Part shown: positions 12,290 to 52,645 of the stretch, piece after piece
Layout of the letters: the number at the start of each line of letters is the position of its first letter
Numbering within the stretch: the stretch's first letter is position 1
Virus record (IMG/VR): IMGVR_UViG_3300047471_000616
Coordinates: 1-64,000 of that record
Source: a virus
Reading direction: 5' to 3' (one strand)
Length of the DNA stretch: 64,000 nt
Program-made: the position numbers and the translations under genes
The notes under the pieces: generated by a model
The model's input: the letters and a program-made list of their open reading frames with translations, nothing else
Database searches by the model: none
What the model was told of the DNA's origin: nothing

Positions 12290-12517
12290 ATGAAGATCCC
12301 CATCTGGTTCAAAGGTAGAGACGGGGTTTGGAAAGTTTTCCCGGCTGAGATCAGCCGCCACCTGCAAACCTTCCAAGATGGAAAACAAGGGGTCAGCCAT
12401 GTTGTCATGAGAGAAGCTGATTTCTTTGTGAACGAAGTGTCGACAGAAGACTTTTGGGAGATATTCGACCACTATGACCCCAGGTATATCTTGAGGGAGG
12501 AACCAGCATGCAAGTAG
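12290..12517 (+). CDS. Small protein, MKxPxWxK family copy 1
   Basis: AAGGAG SD; MKIPIWFKGRDGVWKVFP. Confidence 0.75.
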   Translation: MKIPIWFKGRDGVWKVFPAEISRHLQTFQDGKQGVSHVVMREADFFVNEVSTEDFWEIFDHYDPRYILREEPACK

Positions 12518-12726
12518 AACTGGAACTGAAGAGGATCAGGCCCGGCAGCATCAGGTGGGACCCGCTGCAGAACATCACCACTCAAGAACTGGCCCTGGCC
12601 CTGCCAGTTGTCATTCTGCTGCTGGCCAAGCCCCATTTCACCGAACATGACCAGGCAGCCAGATGTCTGGAACAATTGCCAGAAACTGCCAAAAGACACT
12701 TCAGCTACCGGTGGGGAAAACCATGA
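12508..12726 (+). CDS. Hypothetical protein
   Basis: GGAGG SD; overlaps both neighbours. Confidence 0.65.
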   Translation: MQVELELKRIRPGSIRWDPLQNITTQELALALPVVILLLAKPHFTEHDQAARCLEQLPETAKRHFSYRWGKP

Positions 12727-12956
12727 AGCTGCCGCTATGGGTCAAGGGTAGGGATGGGAAATGGCACCGGTTCCCCTACGAAACCCTAACCTGGGAAAAC
12801 GGCAGGTATGTCATTCACCACGACGATATAGGCCCGCTCCTCAAGCTATGCGACGCAACAGGTTGGCCTTTGCACCAGTTCTGTAGCTACGACAACGACC
12901 ATGGCCAACCTTGGGGGTACCTGGTACTCAAAGAGAAAGCCGGGGAAGACAAATGA
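12723..12956 (+). CDS. Small protein, MKxPxWxK family copy 2
   Basis: MKLPLWVKGRDGKWHRFP; ATGA coupling. Confidence 0.75.
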   Translation: MKLPLWVKGRDGKWHRFPYETLTWENGRYVIHHDDIGPLLKLCDATGWPLHQFCSYDNDHGQPWGYLVLKEKAGEDK

Positions 12957-13186
12957 TCCCAGTTTGGGCCAAGGTAGATGGAAAATGGGTAACCTTCCCC
13001 ACCCACCTGCTGCAAACCCTGGAAGACGGTTCTACCGGCTTCAGGTTTCATACCGACCGCAACGAACACGAAAAAGTAGTAGCCTTCAAGCAATTCAGGG
13101 AGCACTTCTGCCACAACCCGGTCAACTGGTACGAAGACCAAAAGACGCCAACCTACTATGAATACCGGCTGAGAAAACAGCCTTAA
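12953..13186 (+). CDS. Small protein, MKxPxWxK family copy 3
   Basis: MIPVWAKVDGKWVTFP; ATGA coupling. Confidence 0.72.
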   Translation: MIPVWAKVDGKWVTFPTHLLQTLEDGSTGFRFHTDRNEHEKVVAFKQFREHFCHNPVNWYEDQKTPTYYEYRLRKQP

Positions 13187-13245
13187 GACCGAATAAATGC
13201 TAGAAAAAATCCAGGTAATTCTGGGGCAAATCCAAGGAACCAACC

Positions 13246-13461
13246 ATGAAGCTGCCGCTGTGGTACAAAGATCAGTTTGGCAAGTACATCACCCTGGAGT
13301 ATTACCCAGATGGAAAAGTGGGGATCAGCCATGACCGGCTGCTGTCCCACGACAGATCAGGCAGTATCCTGAGATTCGCGGACTTCAGCTATGACAGGTC
13401 CCAGGACCGTTACCTGCTACGGCACCACGTTCGCAACCCAATGAAGGGGCAGCAAGAATGA
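13246..13461 (+). CDS. Small protein, MKxPxWxK family copy 4
   Basis: MKLPLWYKDQFGKY; AAGGA SD. Confidence 0.75.
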   Translation: MKLPLWYKDQFGKYITLEYYPDGKVGISHDRLLSHDRSGSILRFADFSYDRSQDRYLLRHHVRNPMKGQQE

Positions 13462-13673
13462 AACTACCGCTATGGATCAAGAACAAAGAAGGAAAATACG
13501 CAGCGTTCCCCTACGCCGACAGGTTCACCACCTTCAGCGACGGGAAGTGCGGGGTTGAAGCCAAACACGTCAGGTACTCGGACTTGCGGTTATTTTGGCA
13601 ACATGTGTTTATTTACGACATAAGAAATGACCGGTTTCTGCTGAGGGAAACCAGGCGTAAATATAAACGATAA
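13458..13673 (+). CDS. Small protein, MKxPxWxK family copy 5
   Basis: MKLPLWIKNKEGKYAAFP; ATGA coupling. Confidence 0.75.
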   Translation: MKLPLWIKNKEGKYAAFPYADRFTTFSDGKCGVEAKHVRYSDLRLFWQHVFIYDIRNDRFLLRETRRKYKR

Positions 13674-13742
13674 ATTGCTAAATCTTGGTGCGGGTCGCAG
13701 GGGCACCACGCCCGCCGACGGGGAGGGAGGGGTGACCATTTT

Positions 13743-13774
13743 GTCAAATCACAAGTTGTTACACCCCTGTAACA
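13743..13774. repeat. Left arm of an inverted repeat (GTCAAATCACA-N3-TGTTACA-N4-TGTAACA)
   Basis: Reverse-complement match to 14917-14947. Confidence 0.8.
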
Positions 13775-13794
13775 ATACGTTACTTGACAAGGCT

Positions 13795-13824
13795 AGCGTG
13801 TGGCACAGTCAAGTGCCACACGCT
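13795..13824 (-). terminator. Hairpin, likely terminator of the 14684->13876 unit
   Basis: Perfect 12-bp stem AGCGTGTGGCAC/GTGCCACACGCT. Confidence 0.6.
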
Positions 13825-13875
13825 GCAAGCTAACGGGTGAGGCTAGCGTGTACTAACGTTTCATTGCAACCCCCT

Positions 13876-14091
13876 TCAAAAGGTTGCGGGCTTACCGCGC
13901 CGCAACCATTGTTCAAGTTGATAGTGTTCAGCCGCCGTGAGCGGCAGCTGCGGTTCACCGTCAAAGTCAGCGTCAAGTAGCGTGACCTTGGCGGCATTGA
14001 ACTTGCGGGCTTGCCATGCGGCAAGCGGGGCAAGTTGACGGTCACGGCGCGCTAACCTACGCGCCGCAACCCTGTTGTAGTGTGTGCGCAT
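13876..14091 (-). CDS. Hypothetical basic protein
   Basis: TAATG coupling to the upstream gene. Confidence 0.6.
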   Translation of the reverse strand: MRTHYNRVAARRLARRDRQLAPLAAWQARKFNAAKVTLLDADFDGEPQLPLTAAEHYQLEQWLRRGKPATF

Positions 14092-14684
14092 TAGCTATTG
14101 AAATGCGCGGCCAAGTCAGTCAACGCAGTTTCAGTAACCGGCGCGTCAACTGGCGCGTCAGTAACCGGCGCGTCAACTGGCGCGTCAGTAACCGGCGCTT
14201 CAACCGGCGCGGGCTTGGCGTTGCGCTTGCGCGCCACCTTGACCGCACCGGCCTTAACCTTTGGCGCGGCCTTGAAGCCGTGAACAATGAGCAGCCGCTC
14301 AATTTCAGCGGCGCCCTTGCTGGTGAGTTCAGCGCGCTTAACCTTGGCGCCGCGCTCAATTGGGCTGAACAAGCCCGCGTTGACCAGCGCTTTCAGGTGG
14401 TTGTGCGCCGCGCCTTCAGCACCGGCCGCGTTCAGGTATTGTGAAACCTGAACACCATCAGGCCGCAGTGCCATTGCCACGTTCACGGCTTCAATACCAG
14501 GGGTTTTTTTGCAGGTCACCGTTGCCACGGTGATCATTGCCGGGGTTGGCAACGTGCCCACCCGTTCAACGCCCCACCGTTCAAAGTTGGCCACGTATTG
14601 ATTGAACCAACCCAGTTTGGGGTGATCAGCCGCAACCTTGATAGCGGCCAGCGCCTTTTCATGATCAGTTAACTTTTTAGCCAT
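14091..14684 (-). CDS. Hypothetical protein with a possible winged-helix core, Lys/Ala-rich linker and APVTD/APVD repeats
   Basis: GAAAGG SD before MAKKLTD; tandem repeats at 14132-14210. Confidence 0.75.
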   Translation of the reverse strand: MAKKLTDHEKALAAIKVAADHPKLGWFNQYVANFERWGVERVGTLPTPAMITVATVTCKKTPGIEAVNVAMALRPDGVQVSQYLNAAGAEGAAHNHLKALVNAGLFSPIERGAKVKRAELTSKGAAEIERLLIVHGFKAAPKVKAGAVKVARKRNAKPAPVEAPVTDAPVDAPVTDAPVDAPVTETALTDLAAHFNS

Positions 14685-14916
14685 TGTAGTTTTGCCTTTC
14701 ATTGTGAAAGCGGCCCTTGAGGCGTGCCGCATTGCCTTTGAATTTTGGTAAGCCCGTTGATTGCACGCCTTACCCAACGCGGCATTTTTGCCTTGGCGTC
14801 AGCGCATGGTTACCGGGCTACACCACAGGGCTAGCCGCCGGGCGTACCTGCTAGGTTATAAGCCAACCCAGCACTCACCATAAAGCACGCCACACACAAT
14901 TAAACAAGTAAACAAA

Positions 14917-14947
14917 TGTTACACGTTGTAACATTATGTGATTTGAC
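14917..14947. repeat. Right arm of the inverted repeat (TGTTACA-N3-TGTAACA-N3-TGTGATTTGAC)
   Basis: Reverse-complement match to 13743-13774. Confidence 0.8.
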
Positions 14948-15073
14948 TTGAGGCGCGTGGTGACGCAGCTGCGGCTGATCACGAAGTGTTACAATTGAAA
15001 TATTGCGTGATCAGACGAAGCGCGGCCTGGACGAAGCGGGCGGCCGCTTGGCATTTCTTGCGGCCAGCGCCCA

Positions 15074-15252
15074 GGGCGTCGTCGTCGAGGACTCATCCGA
15101 AGGGCTCATCCGACAAGAGCTCATCCGACAAGAGCTCATCCGACAGGTCATCCGACAGGTCATCTAGCTCATCTTAAGAATATCCTGGCGTCGTCGTCGA
15201 TCACGAACGGGCGTGGAAACCGTAGGATTTAGGCCTCATCTGGCTCATCCGC
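15074..15252. repeat. Non-coding short direct-repeat array, TCATCCGA(CA)
   Basis: Seven TCATCY copies at 10-15 bp spacing (15092-15174), two more at 15236-15252, plus two GGCGTCGTCGTCGA copies. Confidence 0.85.
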
Positions 15253-15310
15253 CGCAAATTACTTAGTTTCCTAAGTATCCTCAATTCAACGAGTTCGCGA
15301 AGTAACGAAG

Positions 15311-15338
15311 TGCCCCGCAGCAATTGTGCTACGGGGCA
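15311..15338 (-). terminator. Hairpin, probable terminator
   Basis: TGCCCCG.AGCA/TGCT.CGGGGCA just downstream of 15356-15733. Confidence 0.55.
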
Positions 15339-28178: not shown

Positions 28179-28643
28179 ATGATCAACGAAAGTGACGTGA
28201 GTACCGCTGGCAATGGCCAAGACGCTGAGGCCATGCCCATGCCGAAGCGGCGTGCCCGCAAGGTACGTACTTCGCCCAGCGGCCCTGTACTGAAGGCAAT
28301 TGCCCGCAAAGCGGCCCAAAACAAGCCCGGCAAAGCCCCTGTAAAGGCCAAGGGTGCGGCCAAAGTAAAGGCCAAGGGTGCGGCCAAGCCGCGCAAAGCC
28401 CGCACCGCTGACCCCGCCAAGCAGGACCAGTTCGGCCTGCGCAAGGGCAGCATCAAGTCCCGTGCAGCGGCGATGTACGCCGCCAAGAAGGGGGCTACCC
28501 TCAACGAAGTGAAGGAGGCCCTTGAGAGCACCCAGTTCAACGTGCTGACCGAGCTGGAGGGGAAGGGCTTCAAAGTGACTCGTACCCTGGTGTCTGGGAT
28601 TGGTGCCCGTCAGGCTACCAAGTACCATTTGAGTGCGAAATAA
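28179..28643 (+). CDS. Lys/Ala-rich (histone H1-like) protein with a C-terminal HTH-like domain
   Basis: KAKGAAK repeats; C-terminus similar to 37534-38343; TTGACA upstream at 28121. Confidence 0.72.
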   Translation: MINESDVSTAGNGQDAEAMPMPKRRARKVRTSPSGPVLKAIARKAAQNKPGKAPVKAKGAAKVKAKGAAKPRKARTADPAKQDQFGLRKGSIKSRAAAMYAAKKGATLNEVKEALESTQFNVLTELEGKGFKVTRTLVSGIGARQATKYHLSAK

Positions 28644-38343: not shown

Positions 38344-38558
38344 CCGACCCCTTTGACTTGAAAGCACCACTGGTCACGGCCCTGTCGGCGAACGTTTACT
38401 CCGATGGGGTGAGGCTTAGCTTTGGTGAAGCCCTCCCTGCCGCTGGTAAGTCAACTTATCATACAGCAGTCTTCATACCTGCCAGGCTCTTTGTGGAGCT
38501 CAGGAAGCTGATCACCAACATAGAGCCCAAATTGGCTGAGATGAAAGATGCTGTATAA
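38340..38558 (+). CDS. Hypothetical protein
   Basis: ATGA coupling. Confidence 0.6.
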   Translation: MTDPFDLKAPLVTALSANVYSDGVRLSFGEALPAAGKSTYHTAVFIPARLFVELRKLITNIEPKLAEMKDAV

Positions 38559-39462
38559 AACCAAAGGCCCGTCAGGGAAAGTTATGCATAGAACCAGGCC
38601 CCTCCTTATCTCCGCTAAGGAGGGGTATTCACGTCCGGCACCGGGCAAAGCTTGGTTTCAGACTACCACCACTGTCTGGCGCGTGGATGAACTGATCCGC
38701 AGGCGGGTCAGGGACTGGCGCAGGTTGCTGGGGGAAACCGGCCATACCGGCACCCGCACTGAAACCATGAGAGCAGATCATGATAGTGTTTATACCGGTA
38801 CTCACAGCGTATTCCCTGCTCCTTTGGTTGAGTGGGTACTGCTTCGCTACGGACCACCCGGCGGTCGCATTCTTGATGCTTTTGCTGGCGGCCCTCCTCG
38901 GGCCGTTGTGTCGGCCATTATGGGCTACGAGTACGTCGGCTTCGAAATCAGGCAGGAGCAGATAGATGAAAACAAGTCCACGCTTGCTGATCTGCACCTT
39001 AGTGGTGGCAGCTTTATTCTCGGTGACGGCTGCGTACTCGGCAAAGATGTTGGCCTATTTGATATGGCATTGACTTGCCCACCTTACTGGAACTTGGAAA
39101 CGTACAGTGATCTGCCCAACGACCTCAGCAACCTGAAGACTTACAGTAGGTTTAATTCAGCCATGTTAGATTGCGCTCACGCACATCGTAAGCACATGAA
39201 GCCGGGTGCCTTTGTCTGCATCGTGGTTGGACCGTTCAGGGATAAGAAAACTGGTGAGTTGATTGATTTCCCGGCGCACACAGTCCAGAACTTTCAGGCT
39301 GCCGATTTCATCTATTGGCAGCAGATTGTGCTGTCAAAGAATTTTGCTTCAGCTGCTAAACGCTCTACCAATGCCTGGCGCGGATTGAAGTTAGTACCGG
39401 CGCACGAATTCTTATTGGTGTTCAAAACTCCTGGTGAGAAATCAAATGTCAGAAGCAAATGA
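38548..39462 (+). CDS. Amino (N6-A / N4-C) DNA methyltransferase
   Basis: ILDAFAGG motif I, GFEI, TCPPYW motif IV, MKPG. Confidence 0.8.
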   Translation: MLYKTKGPSGKVMHRTRPLLISAKEGYSRPAPGKAWFQTTTTVWRVDELIRRRVRDWRRLLGETGHTGTRTETMRADHDSVYTGTHSVFPAPLVEWVLLRYGPPGGRILDAFAGGPPRAVVSAIMGYEYVGFEIRQEQIDENKSTLADLHLSGGSFILGDGCVLGKDVGLFDMALTCPPYWNLETYSDLPNDLSNLKTYSRFNSAMLDCAHAHRKHMKPGAFVCIVVGPFRDKKTGELIDFPAHTVQNFQAADFIYWQQIVLSKNFASAAKRSTNAWRGLKLVPAHEFLLVFKTPGEKSNVRSK

Positions 39463-40007
39463 CGCTATCTCCTCCTCGTATTCAGGACACCCCAATGAGC
39501 CGTAAAAACAAGGAGGATTGGGGGCCAGGCCCCTGGCAGAATGAACCTGACGATAAGGATTGGGTTGACCCAGCCACCATGCTGGATTGTAAAATACTAC
39601 GCGGCCCGTTTGGGGCTCTCTGCGGGTACGTTGGCGTACCGAAAGAGCACCCGGCTTATGGAATGAGCTACAGTTTTTATATAGAGGGCTATGTCGACGA
39701 AAATGTTGAGTGGTGGCGTAGGCACATCACCCATCGGGTAGAATACAAAATCATGGACATTGACGTGCACGGAGGGCTGACTTTCTCAGGCCCACACACA
39801 GACAGTGATCTTCACTGGTTCGGCTTTGATTGTTCACATGCCTTTGACTTTACCCCAGGATTACTTGACGGTGAGACTTTACAGCATATCCGCATGAAGG
39901 ATGAAATTTACCGCGATATTGAATATGTCACCACGCAAGTCGAATCCTTGGCGAAGCAGCTGGCAGCAATAAAGAGGTTAGATGATGGACAGACAGGAAC
40001 TAGTTAA
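39459..40007 (+). CDS. Conserved phage hypothetical protein
   Basis: CGYVGVP..HP, VHGGLTFS, WFGFDCSH motifs. Confidence 0.75.
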   Translation: MTLSPPRIQDTPMSRKNKEDWGPGPWQNEPDDKDWVDPATMLDCKILRGPFGALCGYVGVPKEHPAYGMSYSFYIEGYVDENVEWWRRHITHRVEYKIMDIDVHGGLTFSGPHTDSDLHWFGFDCSHAFDFTPGLLDGETLQHIRMKDEIYRDIEYVTTQVESLAKQLAAIKRLDDGQTGTS

Positions 40008-41259: not shown

Positions 41260-43938
41260 ATTTCATTTTACTTCGCTAAGCAAGCCCGCAAGGCTGCAAA
41301 GCCTGCTGGCAAAGCCCCTTTGGGCACGCCCCGCAATGCCCGCGCCAGTGTGCAGGCGTTGCGTAGGCTTGGCTGCAAAGCCTGCCCCTTGAATAAGGCT
41401 GACGTGCAAACGCCCAAAATGTTGCCTACGCTGGCACGCCAAACTGAAGTGTATTTTCTAGCTGAAGCACCAGGGAGGGATGAAGATGAAAACACGGGGA
41501 AACCGCTCACAGGTCCCAGTGGTACTCTTTTACGGCAGTGCATTCCTAACGGCTTTGTACCTGTATGCTCTTTTGACAACGTGTGCAACTGTCGACCCAC
41601 CGATGCCAAAGGGAACCGCGCACCAACTTGGCAGGAAGTAGAATGTTGCCAGCCCAGACGGGTCAAATTCATAGAACAGGCCAAGCCCAAGCTGATTGTC
41701 GGCCTGGGGGCAGTGCCGTTGCAGGCCATACTGGGATCAGGTGACCTGGCCGGGATGCGCGGCAGGCTGTTCGCAGTCAAAATAGGCAGCCACGAATGCT
41801 GGTTCATGCCTACCTATCATCCATCCTTCATCCTGAGGACCGCCTATGACAAGAAAAAGCCCCTCCAATCCAAACTCGGCCACTGCTTCAGGATGGATGT
41901 CCGTCGTGCTTGCGAAATGGCCGCAGAACTCAAACCCTGCAAAATTGATAGCGAAAGCGAAATCAGATCAGGAGTGCAGTGCTTTGACGGATCAGATCCC
42001 TCCCATTACGGAAAATTATGTGCGCTACTTGATCATGCTGGCCAGGCTGACACCCAGGCTGACACCATCGCAGTCGATATCGAGACCAGGGGACTCAGAC
42101 CCTTCAGCGACGGCGCAGCCATCATGTCTATCGCCATATCAACTGCAACATCTAATTTCAGCTTTGCAGTTGAACATCCAGCATCAGCATTTTCAGTTGA
42201 TCAACGAAAAATCATTAGTGAGTTATGTGCAAGGATACTTGGAAGCAGCGGGCCGACTAAAGCCGCACATAACGCACCATTTGAGCTCGAGTGGTTTATC
42301 TGGCTATTTGGACGCGAGATCGTGGACCACGCGACTTGGGAATGCACTCAGATGCAAGCCCATTTTCTGGATGAAAGGCGTGGCAAGCAGGGTCATGGGG
42401 AGGATAACTTCCGGGCTCCATACCAAAGTCTAGACTTCCTGGTGAAGCAGCACTTCGGCATAAAATATAAGTCCATGTTCAAGCTGAACAAAAAGGACAT
42501 GTCAAAGTCCGACCTAGGCGAGATGCTGATTTACAACGCCCTGGATACGAAGTATACGCTCAAGCTCCACCACGCCCAGACCAAGCTGCTGAAGGAGCGC
42601 GGGCTGCATGACGCCTACCTTGAGGCACTGCCACGGCAGTCTTCAGTAGCCTTGATGCAGACCCTTGGGGTGCTGGTGGACCAGGCTGAAGTCAAACGCA
42701 ATCAGGCCAAACTAGGTAAGGAAATAGCTGGTATTGAGGCTGAGATGGACGCCCTGCCGGTTGTGCGTGAGTACAAGGCAGATCACCGTGAAGTCAACTT
42801 CGCAGCTGGCCCAGACTCCCTTGACATCTTCAAGGACTACTTGAAATGCCCAGAAGTGAGGGTCAATCCTGAACATCACGAAGTGCACGACTACAACATT
42901 GCATCCAAGGCTAAGCGCAAGTTTGATGAAGCACCAGGGAAACCCAAATATTCGGTGGATAAAAATGTGCTTGATAAGATTGACCATCCCCTCGCCAAAC
43001 TTATCGGTGACTTGCGTAACAAAACCAAACTCAAATCAACATACTGTGATGGTTTGGAATTCGGAAGGGGTGCTTTGGTGTACCCTGACGGTAGATTACA
43101 CTGTAACTTCAACACCACCTTCGCAGAAACCGGGCGAACGAGTAGTGATGCTCCAAACATGCAAAATTTCCCCCAACGCAAAGACTCCTGGATCAGAAAG
43201 CAAATCGTGGCCCCAAAGGGTCATGTCTTTGTTGCGTTTGATTATGGTCAGCTAGAGGGTTGTACTGCTGCCATGTGCAGCAAGGACAAAGTGTTGGTGA
43301 AAGCCCTGTGGGAGGACTATGACATTCACATGGAGTGGGCACAGAAGCTGGCTGCCAGGTACCCTGAGATTGGCGTAGCGGACAAAGCCCTGAGGGCACG
43401 GGTCAAAAACAAGCTAGTGTTCCCGGCCATCTTTGGGGCCAAGAATAGCTCAATTGCCGACTACCTGAAGGTGCCTGAAGACGTTATTGACGACATTATG
43501 GATTCTTTCTGGGAGACATTCGATGGCTTAGCCGAATGGCAAGATCGAATTATGAAATTTTACTACGAAGAGGGATATGTTGAAAGCCCAACTGGTAGGA
43601 GGCATCATTACCCCCTAACAAGGAACCAAGCTATCAACTTCCCCATACAAAGTGTAGCCTGTGATCTGGTCTGCTGTGCCATGAACGAGTTATCACACAA
43701 AGCAGTGTCGTCCGGCAATTGGCATCTGCATCCTATACTAAACATACATGACGATTTATCGTTCTCGATACCTGACAATGACCAAATTCTTGAGAAATCA
43801 ATTGAAACTATCTACAGGGCCATGCTAGACCAACCATATGATTTTATCAATGTGCCTCTTTCCGTGAAGGCGTCGATTGGTAAGAATTGGTTTGATATGC
43901 AGGATATAGGGGCATTCTGGAGTCACAAGGATCTGTAA
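41260..43938 (+). CDS. Family A DNA polymerase with an N-terminal family-4 uracil-DNA glycosylase-like domain and a 3'-5' exonuclease
   Basis: CKACPL, AEAPG..E, NCRP, TYHPS (UDG); DIET, YNALD (exo); TGRTSS..PNMQN, DYGQLE, NFPIQS, IHDD (PolA). Start inferred at ATT after AGGAGGT. Confidence 0.92.
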   Translation: MSFYFAKQARKAAKPAGKAPLGTPRNARASVQALRRLGCKACPLNKADVQTPKMLPTLARQTEVYFLAEAPGRDEDENTGKPLTGPSGTLLRQCIPNGFVPVCSFDNVCNCRPTDAKGNRAPTWQEVECCQPRRVKFIEQAKPKLIVGLGAVPLQAILGSGDLAGMRGRLFAVKIGSHECWFMPTYHPSFILRTAYDKKKPLQSKLGHCFRMDVRRACEMAAELKPCKIDSESEIRSGVQCFDGSDPSHYGKLCALLDHAGQADTQADTIAVDIETRGLRPFSDGAAIMSIAISTATSNFSFAVEHPASAFSVDQRKIISELCARILGSSGPTKAAHNAPFELEWFIWLFGREIVDHATWECTQMQAHFLDERRGKQGHGEDNFRAPYQSLDFLVKQHFGIKYKSMFKLNKKDMSKSDLGEMLIYNALDTKYTLKLHHAQTKLLKERGLHDAYLEALPRQSSVALMQTLGVLVDQAEVKRNQAKLGKEIAGIEAEMDALPVVREYKADHREVNFAAGPDSLDIFKDYLKCPEVRVNPEHHEVHDYNIASKAKRKFDEAPGKPKYSVDKNVLDKIDHPLAKLIGDLRNKTKLKSTYCDGLEFGRGALVYPDGRLHCNFNTTFAETGRTSSDAPNMQNFPQRKDSWIRKQIVAPKGHVFVAFDYGQLEGCTAAMCSKDKVLVKALWEDYDIHMEWAQKLAARYPEIGVADKALRARVKNKLVFPAIFGAKNSSIADYLKVPEDVIDDIMDSFWETFDGLAEWQDRIMKFYYEEGYVESPTGRRHHYPLTRNQAINFPIQSVACDLVCCAMNELSHKAVSSGNWHLHPILNIHDDLSFSIPDNDQILEKSIETIYRAMLDQPYDFINVPLSVKASIGKNWFDMQDIGAFWSHKDL

Positions 43939-44435
43939 TGGATACTAAACAGCTAGTAACAAGGCTTAAACGTGACTATCTTTATAATCAGGAAACTGGA
44001 GATTTCTATCATCTCAAAAGAGGTAGTACTGCTGGTTACCGGCGCAAGGATGGGTACGTTGAATTGTATGTAGGAGGGATGCCATATCTGGCCCACCGCA
44101 TGGCGTGGCTGTACACAACTGGGCAGTTGCCGCATGAGGTAGATCACAAGAATGGGGTCAGATCAGATAATAGATGGTCTAATCTTCGTGAAGCTTCAAG
44201 AAGCCAGAATAATGGCAACAGCAACGGTTGGTCCAAATCAAAAAGGAAGAATAATTTGCCAAGAGGGGTGTACATCAATAAGGCCCTACCTCACAGGTTT
44301 TTGGCAAGGATAGAAATAGGCCGTAGGTGCATAAGCCTGGGAAGTTTTGACACTGTGGCTGAGGCAGAAACAGCCTACAAAGAGGCGGCGCACAAACACT
44401 TCGGTGTGTTTGTCAGGAGTAATCGTGATGTATGA
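43938..44435 (+). CDS. HNH-AP2 homing endonuclease
   Basis: AHRMAW, VDHKNG.RSDNRWSNLR; C-terminal LGSFDT...A..AY..AA...FG. Confidence 0.9.
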   Translation: MDTKQLVTRLKRDYLYNQETGDFYHLKRGSTAGYRRKDGYVELYVGGMPYLAHRMAWLYTTGQLPHEVDHKNGVRSDNRWSNLREASRSQNNGNSNGWSKSKRKNNLPRGVYINKALPHRFLARIEIGRRCISLGSFDTVAEAETAYKEAAHKHFGVFVRSNRDV

Positions 44436-49039: not shown

Positions 49040-49599
49040 GCAAAGATAGAATCACCATCAACCAGCTGATCAGGATAGCCGAAGAAAGAACCTGGGAAGA
49101 TTTTGAAGCAATGCCGGATGGGCGGCTGATTCTTCAAGACCATGCCCAGACCCTGCTTCAGAGCGAGGAACCAGTAAGCCCACTATTGTGGATATTTGAA
49201 ATGCGAATTGGGCTTCACTTCGAACGGCCAATGCAGGCCATCATGTCGTGCGGGCACTTCATCAGGATGCGCAGTGCCGACATATCTTGGGGGGTTGAGA
49301 GCTTGAGAAAGCTGGATCCAGCTCGGCCCAACGATTGCTTATACACTCAAATGGGCCCCCTCAACGTGGGCCCCCTCAACTGGGGCTGGCGTCCTTACAT
49401 GTCCCAAGCAACGTCCAATACGCCGTCCACTGTCTTTGTGGGGGTACCACTACAAACAACTTGTGGTGGGGCCGGGCCATATGCTACCCAGAATACAACA
49501 TATCAACGCGCAGCCTTACAGGCGGCTCAACAAGCAATTAAGAGTGCCACCTCTTGGGGGCTGCAGACTCTTCAAGGCCATAGCAGCACCAAGATATGA
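49036..49599 (+). CDS. Hypothetical protein
   Basis: ATGA coupling on both sides. Confidence 0.6.
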   Translation: MSKDRITINQLIRIAEERTWEDFEAMPDGRLILQDHAQTLLQSEEPVSPLLWIFEMRIGLHFERPMQAIMSCGHFIRMRSADISWGVESLRKLDPARPNDCLYTQMGPLNVGPLNWGWRPYMSQATSNTPSTVFVGVPLQTTCGGAGPYATQNTTYQRAALQAAQQAIKSATSWGLQTLQGHSSTKI

Positions 49600-50606
49600 C
49601 GTGGCTTGTTTCTGCCGATTTACACCTGTCAGACCGGCCAAAAGACTCATACCGCTTTGCCATCTTTGACTGGCTGGCTAAGCAGCAGCAGAAACACAAC
49701 GTCAGCGCCACCTTCATTCTAGGTGACCTGACCGACCGCAAAGACAATCATTCATCGGCCCTGGTCAACCGGGTCATAGATGAACTGCTGAAGCTGCGGC
49801 CACCGGTCTACATACTTCGCGGCAACCATGACGGTATTGACCCCAACAACCCCTTTTTCCGCTTCCTGCAAACCATTGAGGGGCTGGACTTTGTGGTTGA
49901 GCCTGTAGTGATCAACGGGGTGGCTATGATCCCCCACCAGCCCGATCAGGCCGCCCTGGACCGCGCCTGTGGCATTGTTAGGCCCTCTATGGCCGGGGTC
50001 ATGATGCATCAGACCCTTGACGGGGCTATGGCTGAAACCGGCACCCGTTTGTCGGGCCTACGGTGCCCGCTGATTGAGGCAATGCAGCCCGCTATGGTAT
50101 GGCAGCGGTGGCTTAGCGGTGACGTACACAAGCCCCAACGGCTCAGTGGGGGGCTAACCTACGTAGGCGCGCCCTACCATGTGCGCTTTGGTGATGACTT
50201 TGAGCCTAGGGTGTTGCTAATTGGCAACACTATAAACTCTCAAACGGCCCTGCACTTCCCCTGCCTCAAGAAATGGGTGCTGCACACTAGGGGCATTGGT
50301 GAACTTGAATTAGTGCTTGGGCTCCCGAGGAAAGGGGATCATGTCAAAATCATCGTTACGCTATCGCCTGAGGAGGTTGTGGAGTGGGCTGCAATTAAAC
50401 GTAGGATACTTGACGCCTGCCGGGCGATGGAAGTACAGGTTTTCGGTGTCGAATTGGAAATTGCAGGCAAAAAGACAAAGGGAACTACTGACCAGCAACC
50501 TGTTGTACATGACCGAACGCCGAAGGAAATATTTGGACGATTTTGCCAAGCCGAACGGGTCCCAGTAGACATCAAACAGGTAGGGGAAGAGTTTGTTTCA
50601 AATTGA
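49596..50606 (+). CDS. SbcD/Mre11-like metallophosphoesterase nuclease
   Basis: ADLH, LGDL, GNHD, GDVH. Confidence 0.88.
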   Translation: MTWLVSADLHLSDRPKDSYRFAIFDWLAKQQQKHNVSATFILGDLTDRKDNHSSALVNRVIDELLKLRPPVYILRGNHDGIDPNNPFFRFLQTIEGLDFVVEPVVINGVAMIPHQPDQAALDRACGIVRPSMAGVMMHQTLDGAMAETGTRLSGLRCPLIEAMQPAMVWQRWLSGDVHKPQRLSGGLTYVGAPYHVRFGDDFEPRVLLIGNTINSQTALHFPCLKKWVLHTRGIGELELVLGLPRKGDHVKIIVTLSPEEVVEWAAIKRRILDACRAMEVQVFGVELEIAGKKTKGTTDQQPVVHDRTPKEIFGRFCQAERVPVDIKQVGEEFVSN

Positions 50607-52194
50607 GAGCGTTGAGTTAGAGAACTTCAGGTCCTACCGTGGCAAGCATAGTATCAAGCTACCAACTGAACCCGGCCTCTACCTGCTTACCGGCCGTAAT
50701 GAAGTTGAGCCACGTCTCGGAACGAATGATGTCGGCAAGAGTACTCTCCTAGATGCCATATTTTGGTGCCTGTACGGGCGTACTTCCCGTGGCCTGAAAG
50801 CTGCCGATGTGGTCAACTGGGATGAAACCAGTTGCAGCGTCACCGTAGGGATGTGGCTCAGCGACGTGCCGTTGATAGTCAAGCGCACGCAAAGCCCTAA
50901 CAGTCTGCAGCGCAGCAATGGAGCGGTGCCACTCCACCCAGTCAGCCAGGATGATCTACAGAAACGCCTAGGACTAGGCCCCGACGCCTTCCAATACGCA
51001 ATGATGCTGCCGCAGTTCGGTGAGAGCTTCTTTGACCTGGCACCAGCAGCCAAGCTGACCCTGTTCTCACAGATCATGGGCCTAGATTACTGGCTGGAAA
51101 AGAGCCAGGAAGCTGCAGAGACGGCTGGTGAAATCTGGGCTGAAATAGAAGAAGCCAATCACGAAGAGGGCAGGTGTGACGCGCAGATTGAGATGATAAA
51201 TGTTGATCTGCAGCTGCTTGGCGGGAAACAGAAGGAATTTGTCGAAGCACAAAAGCGCGTAATTGCGACATTGGGCAAAGACAAAAATGAATTAAAAGCC
51301 GCCCAACGTAAGACCGCTGAGGCCATTGATTTTGCAGAAAAGGCCCTGCTGAACGCAACCAACAAGCTGGCCAAGATAGAAAAAGGCACGAAGGTGTGCC
51401 CTACGTGCCAGCAGACCATACCAAACTCCAAAATGAAGGCTGACGAAGCAGCCCTTGAGAAAAACCGCGGGGACTTTGAGAGGCAGCTGGTCAGGCTAAG
51501 AAGTGACCAGGCTGTCGACAGTAGTAAACTCAGTCAGATTGAGAAACACATTGCAGGTGAAACCAGCCGCGCTAACCCCTACGGTGAACAAATCAGACAA
51601 AAACAGGCCAGTCTGGTTGCTTGTAAGAAGCAGCAGGCTGACCTGATTTCACAGATAGAAGCAGCTGAGCAGGATCACGCTGCAGTAGACTTTTGGGTAG
51701 GTGGCTTCAAGCGTGTCAGGCTGTTCATAGTGGAAGAAACGCTGCGCCAGCTAGAGCTGGAAGTGAACAACAACCTGAGCAATTTAGGGCTGACTGATTG
51801 GAGGATAGAATTTGATGTGGAGCGGGAAAACAAATCAGGCGGCATCACCAAGGGCTTTGTGGTGCTTGTCTACCCCCCTGGGAGACCCGAGCCGGTCAGG
51901 TTTGAAGCTTACTCTGGTGGGGCTACTCAGCGGCTGCGTATGGCCGGGGACCTTGGGCTGGCCAACCTGATCATGCTTCGCGCTGGGCTGACCAGCGCGG
52001 TTGAGTTCTTTGATGAACCCAGCAGGCACTTGAGTACAGAAGGGCAGCTGGACCTGGCTGAAACCCTGATGCAGCGTGCCCTAACTGATAAGAAGGTGAT
52101 CTATCTCTGCGACCACAATCTCATAGATTTTGGCTTCACCGGCACCCTTACGGTAGTAAAAACGGCTGCGGGTTCGCGGCTTTCCTACGGATAG
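50593..52194 (+). CDS. SbcC/Rad50-like ATPase
   Basis: ENFRSY, NDVGKS, CPTC zinc hook, YSGG signature, FFDEP. Confidence 0.9.
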   Translation: MFQIESVELENFRSYRGKHSIKLPTEPGLYLLTGRNEVEPRLGTNDVGKSTLLDAIFWCLYGRTSRGLKAADVVNWDETSCSVTVGMWLSDVPLIVKRTQSPNSLQRSNGAVPLHPVSQDDLQKRLGLGPDAFQYAMMLPQFGESFFDLAPAAKLTLFSQIMGLDYWLEKSQEAAETAGEIWAEIEEANHEEGRCDAQIEMINVDLQLLGGKQKEFVEAQKRVIATLGKDKNELKAAQRKTAEAIDFAEKALLNATNKLAKIEKGTKVCPTCQQTIPNSKMKADEAALEKNRGDFERQLVRLRSDQAVDSSKLSQIEKHIAGETSRANPYGEQIRQKQASLVACKKQQADLISQIEAAEQDHAAVDFWVGGFKRVRLFIVEETLRQLELEVNNNLSNLGLTDWRIEFDVERENKSGGITKGFVVLVYPPGRPEPVRFEAYSGGATQRLRMAGDLGLANLIMLRAGLTSAVEFFDEPSRHLSTEGQLDLAETLMQRALTDKKVIYLCDHNLIDFGFTGTLTVVKTAAGSRLSYG

Positions 52195-52645
52195 CCATAG
52201 CCGCAGTTGCATGTTCTTTGCAGTAGACCTTACCCGCAGATGGTGCCCCGCAATACTTCTTGTCCTTGGCGTCATGGTCATTCCACAGCGGCCAATGACA
52301 CGTTTGGGTGGTCAACCCCATGAGATCGCACGGATCACTGGTTGACACTTCCTTGGGTTGGGTTGCTTCGGCACACATATCATACTCTGGCGCAAAGGCC
52401 GCGTAGGTCCTGTAAATCATCAGCCTGGGGCGTACCCGTCTAGGATTGGTAATAGCTGGTGTATATGGCTCGCCACTCATTCGCCTGCCCAGGCGGTGAA
52501 CCTTGCCAACTACGGCGTTTCTGGTTGCCCCAAGGATAAGGGCTATCTGGTTGCCTGAATGCCCGGCGTCAATAAGTCGGTTCAATTCCTTTACTTTTTC
52601 TTCGGTCCACTGGTTTATACGTCCGTTTGCATGTGCTTCAGTCAT
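52148..52645 (-). CDS. gcrA: GcrA-like cell-cycle regulator / sigma70 cofactor
   Basis: WTEEKV..L...GHS..QIA..LG.TRNAVVGKVHRLG; C-terminal CHWP...YCG....YC.EH. Confidence 0.88.
   Translation of the reverse strand: MTEAHANGRINQWTEEKVKELNRLIDAGHSGNQIALILGATRNAVVGKVHRLGRRMSGEPYTPAITNPRRVRPRLMIYRTYAAFAPEYDMCAEATQPKEVSTSDPCDLMGLTTQTCHWPLWNDHDAKDKKYCGAPSAGKVYCKEHATAAMAIRRKAANPQPFLLP

Follow-up and report, generated by a model that had tools for sequence, protein, structure and literature searches.

Conserved islands free of VGA/TCB trinucleotides mark a putative first-acting cassette in a clade of uncultured viruses

Infection by phage T5 proceeds in two steps: the first 8% of the genome is injected, transfer halts at a signal rich in repeats and palindromes, and host DNA is degraded via A1 (10.1101/866236; 10.64898/2026.04.02.716235). 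How the first-step DNA itself escapes degradation is unresolved, Davison having proposed that it carries no sites (10.1101/866236; 10.64898/2026.04.02.716235). Here, we describe a locus with a comparable property in the 96,020-bp IMG/VR virus record IMGVR_UViG_3300047471_000616 (genome G000), of which bases 1-64000 form the window analyzed. A first-pass annotation had noticed that positions 13728-14982 contain none of the trinucleotides AGA, CGA, and GGA or their complements TCT, TCG, and TCC (VGA/TCB, hereafter "the word"), and had attributed this island to selection against a very short double-stranded DNA motif at the junction of the early and late arms.

A computed scan agreed with that reading of the letters. 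Within the island (13727..14981), all six words are absent (AGA 0, CGA 0, GGA 0, TCT 0, TCG 0, and TCC 0) and therefore occur on neither strand, while TGA is found 33 times and TCA 41 times; at the frequencies of the remaining window, 83.6 sites would be expected. The word-free gap measures 1256 bp, from a GGA at 13726 on the left to a CGA at 14982 on the right. The whole genome contains 6310 sites with a mean spacing of 15.2 bp, and its next longest gaps are 186, 184, 152, 85, and 75 bp. The island is the longest genomic gap for each of the three word pairs, any other trinucleotide pair in the genome has gaps of at most 883 bp, and our Poisson arithmetic for a single gap of this size gives about e^-82. 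As the annotation had stated, the rule extends over two genes and the non-coding DNA and stops sharply at both edges. By our count, the site-free non-coding DNA inside the island amounts to ca. 446 bp, and the 300 bp adjoining the island on its right hold more sites than any other window of this size in the genome (41; mean, 19.7; standard deviation, 4.9; z, +4.3). The island has a GC content of 56.1%, against 53.7% for the genome, and a 3-fold enrichment in CGC/GCG.

We compared the two genes with two null models that keep the proteins, one in which synonymous codons were redrawn from genome usage and another in which each gene's own codons were permuted among synonymous positions. Under the first, 38.6 sites were expected in the gene for a 197-amino-acid (aa) protein (minimum, 24) and 13.7 in a 71-aa open reading frame (ORF) (minimum, 5), that is, 52 jointly with both proteins fixed, and none was seen. 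Under the second, the expectations were 28.7 (minimum, 16) and 10.4 (minimum, 4), so that the ban works through context-dependent codon choice. The codon shuffle that the annotation had named as a check thus never reached zero, and these nulls, together with the gap scan, exclude chance as the cause.

The ban also reaches the protein sequence. Sixteen amino acid pairs cannot be encoded without the word (ED, EE, FP, KD, KE, MD, ME, QD, QE, WD, WE, WI, WK, WM, WN, and WT), and none of them occurs in 82 of the 92 homologues of the 197-aa protein. Over all 92, there are 21 such pairs versus 378 expected by shuffling, a count to be read in light of the fact that the homologues are mutually related and do not amount to 92 independent trials, even if many are only 30 to 45% identical to the query. 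In several of the exceptions the pairs lie in N-terminal extensions beyond the homologous region, or the protein matches through its low-complexity linker alone. This avoidance implies that one site is costly enough to shape a protein sequence, a cost that fits a lethal lesion. The proposed selection against a very short double-stranded motif is therefore borne out by the codon nulls, by the pair avoidance, and by the presence of the ban on both strands and in coding and non-coding DNA; the island is kept word-free by selection, not by composition or mutation.

Related phages, in which the annotation had suggested repeating the scan, carry word-free islands, or islands with one or two sites, at seven further loci with DNA. 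The closest, G001 (90 to 98% identical to G000), is on a contig that terminates 165 bp inside the island. The others measure 1310 bp (G003, one site), 825 bp (G004, two sites), about 570 bp (G002), 748 bp (L058, one site), 768 bp (L060, no site), and at least 1060 bp (L002, a soil metagenome contig, no site, with 45 sites in the adjoining 315 bp). Wherever flanks are visible, the late or sugar arm is followed by the island, then by a word-dense stretch with GATGAGC motifs, and then by the early genes, and the position at the junction of the early and late arms held in every relative examined. The flanking stretch has about twice the word density of its genome and several GATGAGC repeats. Clusters of this motif adjoin the island in G000, G001, G002, G003, G004, L002, L058, and L060, and an array of repeats and palindromes on the early-arm side is conserved at these eight loci. 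In G002, G003, G004, L058, L060, and L002 the cassette gene is directed toward the early genes, while G000 and G001 carry the stretch bounded by the inverted repeats in the opposite orientation; the ban is kept despite this inversion and is thus independent of orientation. Five further fragmentary relatives lack the cassette, but these are only 29 to 57% complete. Contigs encoding the cassette protein are mostly 1.1 to 2.9 kb long, while those encoding PolA in the same clade often exceed 30 kb, which suggests that contigs are often interrupted where the island begins or ends; the short contigs could equally be due to tandem repeats at which assembly fails. The cassette protein also diverges faster than PolA.

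In G000, the island comprises one complete transcription unit and flanking operator-like palindromes. Its main gene (14091..14684, minus strand) encodes the 197-aa protein, with a predicted architecture (AlphaFold2 mean confidence [pLDDT], 90) of a helical N-terminal domain, a winged helix, a basic linker rich in Lys, Ala, and Pro, and a conserved C-terminal helix (LAALAAHFNS). Three 27-bp tandem repeats (14131..14211, repeat family D1) code for APVTDAPVD repeats in the linker. All 92 homologues are metagenomic and came from two very large protein collections. The protein matched no Pfam family, and its matches to known structures were weak: a MarR-like/winged-helix profile match in the PDB over residues 75 to 135 (best E, 0.008), Foldseek E values of at least 0.04, and VIA-align Z scores of at most 5.1. 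We obtained no tblastn match for it in 50,697 phage records and no match for the island DNA in the phage collection. When viral and metagenome contigs were scanned with the protein or with its alignments, most scans gave no match and one metagenome locus was recovered; a scan with the NusG-like neighbor as the query found no locus, and a protein-atlas search gave no useful lead. The second gene, the Arg-rich 71-aa ORF (13876..14091, minus strand), overlaps the stop codon of the first, has no Pfam hit, and is variable, its position being occupied by unrelated small ORFs in relatives.

At the left edge of the island lies an imperfect 50-bp palindrome with the core TGTTACA-N4-TGTAACA (13741..13790; repeats I2 and I3) and at the right edge its partner with the core TGTTACA-N3-TGTAACA (14902..14947), the outer arms (13743-13763 and 14927-14947) forming an inverted repeat. 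The TGTTACA/TGTAACA motif is confined to the island edges in G000 and G001. Downstream of the cassette genes there is a terminator-like hairpin with a perfect 12-bp stem (13795..13824; I15), and at the corresponding edge in relatives, T-runs follow GC-rich hairpins. Upstream of the genes, a 32-nucleotide element (14820..14851, minus strand), either upstream or in the 5' leader, is conserved in G001 and G003. Ribosome-binding sites in strict islands avoid GGA and take forms such as TGAAAGG or TGAGGT. Beyond the right edge, the word-dense flank (14982..15312; D2, D4, and D5) contains five to six GCTCATC(CGACA) repeats at 15083-15175 and is a candidate stop, binding, or cleavage array. Between 12000 and 18000, an Rfam search returned no family, and a sigma-70 consensus scan gave 4 sites versus a mean of 4.1 in shuffled sequence, none of them suited to the minus-strand genes of the cassette. 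Tandem paralogous small ORFs (71 to 97 aa; N termini MK[L/I]P[L/I]W.K) occupy 12508-13673 on the plus strand, after the NusG-like gene and before the island; these ORFs have a high word density and converge on the cassette.

Outside the islands, the word is mildly counter-selected throughout the genome. With our own simple ORF calls, the genes of G000 outside the island have 5371 sites versus 6837 expected by synonymous permutation (0.79), a null that ignores general codon-pair bias and for which outgroup loci served as the control. Of the 32 reverse-complement word pairs, CGA/TCG, GGA/TCC, and AGA/TCT rank with those of strongest depletion, and TCA/TGA shows the highest enrichment (1.25 to 1.36) in G000, G003, and G004. 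Ingroup loci ranged from 0.70 to 0.81 for VGA/TCB and from 1.25 to 1.43 for TGA/TCA, while outgroup phages (32 to 37% PolA identity) gave 0.90 to 0.99 and 1.07 to 1.29, respectively. The depletion of 20 to 30% is thus a feature of this clade only, and it means that the word is harmful everywhere rather than favored. Both sense-strand VGA and sense-strand TCB are depleted, a symmetry implying a reader that sees double-stranded DNA or both strands; a reader acting at the RNA level is ruled out by it.

The distribution of gaps is bimodal. In G000, counts drop 4- to 6-fold per 10 bp up to 60 bp, yet there are four gaps above 150 bp, and G002 and G003 have 10 to 14 such gaps each, mostly of 150 to 250 bp. 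These mini-islands are mostly intragenic, and some occupy orthologous positions in diverged genomes (in the genes for a basic protein, a primase, and a DUF2201 protein and at the start of PolA). We considered whether they might be promoters at gene starts and rejected this, as 10 of 28 overlap a gene start versus 8.9 expected and they share no strong motif. The window contains three, each with 7.6 to 12.3 sites expected and none seen. The first (28272..28424, 152 bp, 7.6 expected) lies within the gene for a basic 168-aa protein, and the orthologous position is word-free in G001, G002, and G003. The second (41273..41457, 184 bp) spans the start of the UDG-PolA gene and is kept in relatives down to ca. 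61% PolA identity. This gene (41320-43938, plus strand) encodes a DNA polymerase A with an N-terminal family-4 UDG-like domain and is followed directly by an HNH endonuclease gene (43938-44435, plus strand); the fusion is common to more than 100 metagenomic homologues, several of which have intein or homing-endonuclease domains. The third (50052..50238, 186 bp) is in a mosaic patch within the Mre11-like gene, where the word-free patch of G001 is adjacent and not at the same position. Along this gene (49596-50606, versus G001:27910-28905), the patch of ca. 540 bp is 52 to 82% identical between two genomes that otherwise share 95 to 100% identity, and the stretches that the two genomes have cleared of the word differ and lie side by side. 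We rejected the idea that word-free patches were acquired from relatives with a genome-wide ban, since none of 120 PolA homologues had fewer than 17 unencodable pairs.

The signature differs from that of restriction. Classical restriction-site avoidance concerns a palindromic or asymmetric 4- to 8-bp site that is scarce throughout the genome, while the word is a degenerate 3-mer whose depletion is 20 to 30% genome-wide and absolute locally. Classical avoidance is also evident in G000 and its relatives G002 to G004, where hexameric palindromes are strongly avoided (median observed/expected ratio [O/E], 0.68), the most extreme being CCGCGG (0.04), GGGCCC (0.04), CCCGGG (0.07), GGCGCC (0.14), and AGGCCT (0.22). 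This avoidance of GC-rich palindromes is a classical restriction signature, one that the VGA/TCB islands do not share.

The explanation that we favor, tentatively and with a rough probability of 0.35, is that the island is a T5-like pre-early cassette, the first to act, which must survive a DNA-damaging activity that reads the word. The cassette, made up in this reading of a promoter, the gene for a putative winged-helix DNA-binding protein, a variable small ORF, and a terminator, heads the early arm. A factor reading the 3-bp double-stranded word would damage DNA, with cuts or nicks as the most likely lesions, while the cassette has to remain intact and expressed, and the strong purifying selection against the word in the cassette would follow from this. 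The remaining ca. 6,300 sites would be tolerated either because that DNA is not yet exposed, if entry takes place in two steps, or because it becomes protected once the cassette product, in which we infer a role for the winged-helix protein, has been made. In the two-step variant, the word-dense GATGAGC array might be the stop or processing site. The island extends from the upstream element to the terminator hairpin, keeps its ban after inversion, and abuts the most word-dense window of the genome, all of which speak for this proposal. So does the arrangement that recurs at the seven further loci and resembles that of T5, with a first gene unit, a repeat array, and then the early genes. The zero tolerance fits a lethal break better than it fits a methyl group. 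A harmful reader is the direction in which the evidence leans, given a near-zero tolerance bought with amino acid changes, the genome-wide depletion, the absence of any sign that the word shields restriction sites, and the lack of genes for bulky adducts.

Several observations weigh against this explanation. The contig is a circular assembly that closes on a direct terminal repeat of 127 bp, which may be the assembler's k-mer overlap of a circular path and not true termini, and the contig ends of relatives mostly fall elsewhere. No nuclease was identified as the reader; among the cassette products there is nothing nuclease-like and no homologue of the A1 metallophosphatase or the A2 DNA-binding protein of T5 (by Pfam and by tblastn in 50,697 phage records), and the only Metallophos protein is encoded by the Mre11-like gene at 49596, a long way from the island. 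The islands of relatives tolerate one or two sites, and no depletion gradient was apparent along the early arm. It is hard to see how the mini-islands would help against a nuclease, and they are better suited to being access windows in marked or coated DNA. Restriction sensitivity resides in the first-step DNA in T5, whereas the islands here avoid classical palindromes no more than the genome does: hexamers avoided by the genome are 2.4 times denser inside islands, and 2 of the 3 GGCGCC sites of G000 are inside its island, a higher density that may come in part from the higher GC content.

A more extreme form of the damage hypothesis, which we regard as unlikely, is that a nuclease or nickase with the 3-bp VGA/TCB specificity, delivered by the virion or induced immediately, shreds all DNA in the cell while only the word-free cassette of 0.6 to 1.3 kb is inside. 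The array would then be a pause in entry and perhaps the point at which the cassette is cut off, in a widespread clade of ca. 90-kb phages with two-step infection and probably alphaproteobacterial hosts. A cassette cut loose at the array would explain why it so frequently appears on a short contig of its own.

The strongest rival, less probable in our judgment than the pre-early cassette, is that the islands are windows free of a DNA mark. The amino-methyltransferase encoded at 38548..39462 (plus strand; a permuted PF01555 with motif I before TCPPYW), or another writer, would mark VGA with N6-methyladenine (m6A) or TCB with N4-methylcytosine (m4C), and the cassette and mini-islands would stay unmarked for transcription, protein binding, or replication. 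This methyltransferase is the only candidate writer that we found. It is a core gene, 67 to 98% identical in all four island-bearing relatives tested (G001 to G004) and absent from one outgroup genome (G005), and its length leaves scant space for a sizeable recognition domain; it could, however, equally be GANTC-like. In G001 the gene (38975-39865, minus strand, 98% identity) has one in-frame TGA, which may mean that it was inactivated recently or may be an error in the sequence. Phages with GA-specific marks are known, and in phage CAjan TGA is modified less than any other GA context (PMC7544227, PMC10484667). The conserved intragenic mini-islands would suit local access windows better than escape from a nuclease, although they are not enriched at gene starts. 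Marks elsewhere in the genome would be read by a GcrA homologue (52193..52645, minus strand; PF07750, 88 bits), whose gene is located where the early and late arms converge.

In Caulobacter, GcrA is a reader of m6A-marked promoters. In all five related genomes GANTC is 2- to 4-fold under-represented (127 sites in G000 versus 271 to 371 expected), and this scarcity, together with the GcrA homologue, suggests an alphaproteobacterial host bearing CcrM.

A single methyl group is nevertheless an unlikely cause of a zero tolerance that bans amino acid pairs, and we found no genes for bulky modifications. Thymidylate-synthase-like hydroxymethylases (PF00303) and TET/JBP dioxygenases (PF12851) are absent from the genome. 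A six-frame search for TGT/DpdA (PF01702) gave nothing at an E value of 0.1 or below, while 14 of 14 control genomes matched; the preQ0 synthesis genes were not searched by family. No other base-modification enzyme was detected with PHROGs or Pfam among the scanned proteins, including 10 unknown early proteins compared with PHROGs. The sugar cluster at 1975-9307 (a thiamine diphosphate [ThDP] enzyme, a radical SAM/SPASM enzyme, a glycosyltransferase, an SIS isomerase, and a nucleotidyltransferase-kinase fusion), which the first-pass annotation had considered as a possible extension of the modification, has nothing that connects it to DNA. A protective mark also predicts that the word should be neutral or enriched, yet it is depleted, and the presence of the word in a palindrome does not significantly raise its tolerance (median O/E of 0.80 with the word versus 0.68 without; P = 0.2).

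It is rather improbable that the reader binds without any covalent change, as an abundant DNA-binding protein (a silencer of the host, or a coat protein of the phage or virion) preferring VGA/TCB, with the cassette and mini-islands as accessible holes and the dense array as a loading site. The conserved juxtaposition of zero and maximal word density, the characteristic size of the mini-islands (150 to 250 bp), and the higher GC and CpG content of islands relative to their genomes would agree with such a protein. We have no candidate for it, however, no known nucleoid protein reads VGA/TCB, and a near-absolute exclusion over 0.6 to 1.3 kb with avoidance of amino acid pairs is stronger than graded binding would lead one to expect.

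Very little weight is left for a mobile or foreign cassette that moves among phages with the composition of another background, its ban stemming from a constraint met elsewhere. Its distinct composition, the flanking inverted repeats and inversion, the short contigs, and the fast divergence of the winged-helix protein relative to PolA would be in line with mobility, but the cassette occupies the same locus in all relatives, the resident genomes carry the same bias in a milder form, there is no transposase or integrase, and no PolA homologue came from a genome banning the word throughout. Finally, a mutational bias such as context-specific deamination, for which TC is a known deaminase context, or chance can practically be dismissed, as the islands are GC-richer and not AT-richer, their ORFs are intact and conserved, the sites were lost through many types of substitution, and chance is excluded by the scans. 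The probability that these readings leave over belongs to mechanisms not yet conceived.

An absolute ban on three base pairs implies a reader with almost no sequence specificity, be it a nuclease, a nickase, a writer, or a binder, and the ban has been conserved long enough to shape the amino acid sequence of a protein family. We know of no described phage or host system that accounts for a 3-bp VGA/TCB reader. If the reader degrades DNA, the islands would be an answer at the sequence level to the T5 question of how the first-entering DNA escapes, and two-step infection would extend beyond Demerecviridae; if it were the shredding nuclease, they would amount to first-step DNA without sites, which has been suggested for T5 but never demonstrated. 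If the reader is instead a mark, they would be an analogue of unmethylated islands in a virus of prokaryotes. In any case, the combination of a bimodal gap distribution, unencodable amino acid pairs, and a step from zero to maximum density is a searchable signature that can locate first-acting genes and candidate counter-defense proteins in uncultured phages, and the amino acid pair test needs nothing but protein sequences to find the ban. Conservation throughout the family, the GATGAGC array next to the island, the inverted cassette, and the mini-islands go beyond the first-pass annotation; new as well are the mild genome-wide counter-selection on both strands, the conservation of mini-islands, the lack of extra palindrome avoidance in islands, and the survey of modification genes.

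Among known systems, chlorella viruses have pairs of frequent-cutting nickases and methyltransferases with degenerate 3-bp specificity (Nt.CviPII, CCD; Nt.CviQII, RAG) that degrade host DNA or mark viral DNA. These are eukaryotic viruses, we know of no site-free cassette in them, and no homologue of their enzymes was sought in G000. The DpdA-dependent dPreQ0 modification at GA in phages CAjan and iggy resembles our case in that a phage enzyme reads GA, and the low modification of TGA in CAjan matches the distinction between VGA and TGA; however, G000 has no TGT/DpdA homologue, and no motif-free island has been described for either phage (PMC7544227, PMC10484667). In the early-injected region of T7-like phages, which determines their sensitivity to Type I restriction, selection on sites is likewise concentrated in the DNA that acts before a counter-measure, although the motifs there are long, bipartite, and those of known host enzymes, while here the word is three base pairs (PMC12455610). 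Relative to T5, the block described here is much smaller (0.6 to 1.3 kb versus about 10 kb), has no A1, A2, or dmp homologues, and bans a degenerate 3-mer; the T5 block occupies the leading physical end within a long terminal repeat, and a first-injected placement here would follow by analogy. What it would have in common with T5 and BF23 is a short set of genes that act first, one of them for a DNA-binding protein, and a boundary on the early side made of conserved non-coding repeats and palindromes; in T5, sites in the first-step block decide the sensitivity to nucleases (10.1101/866236; PMC10644984; 10.64898/2026.04.02.716235).

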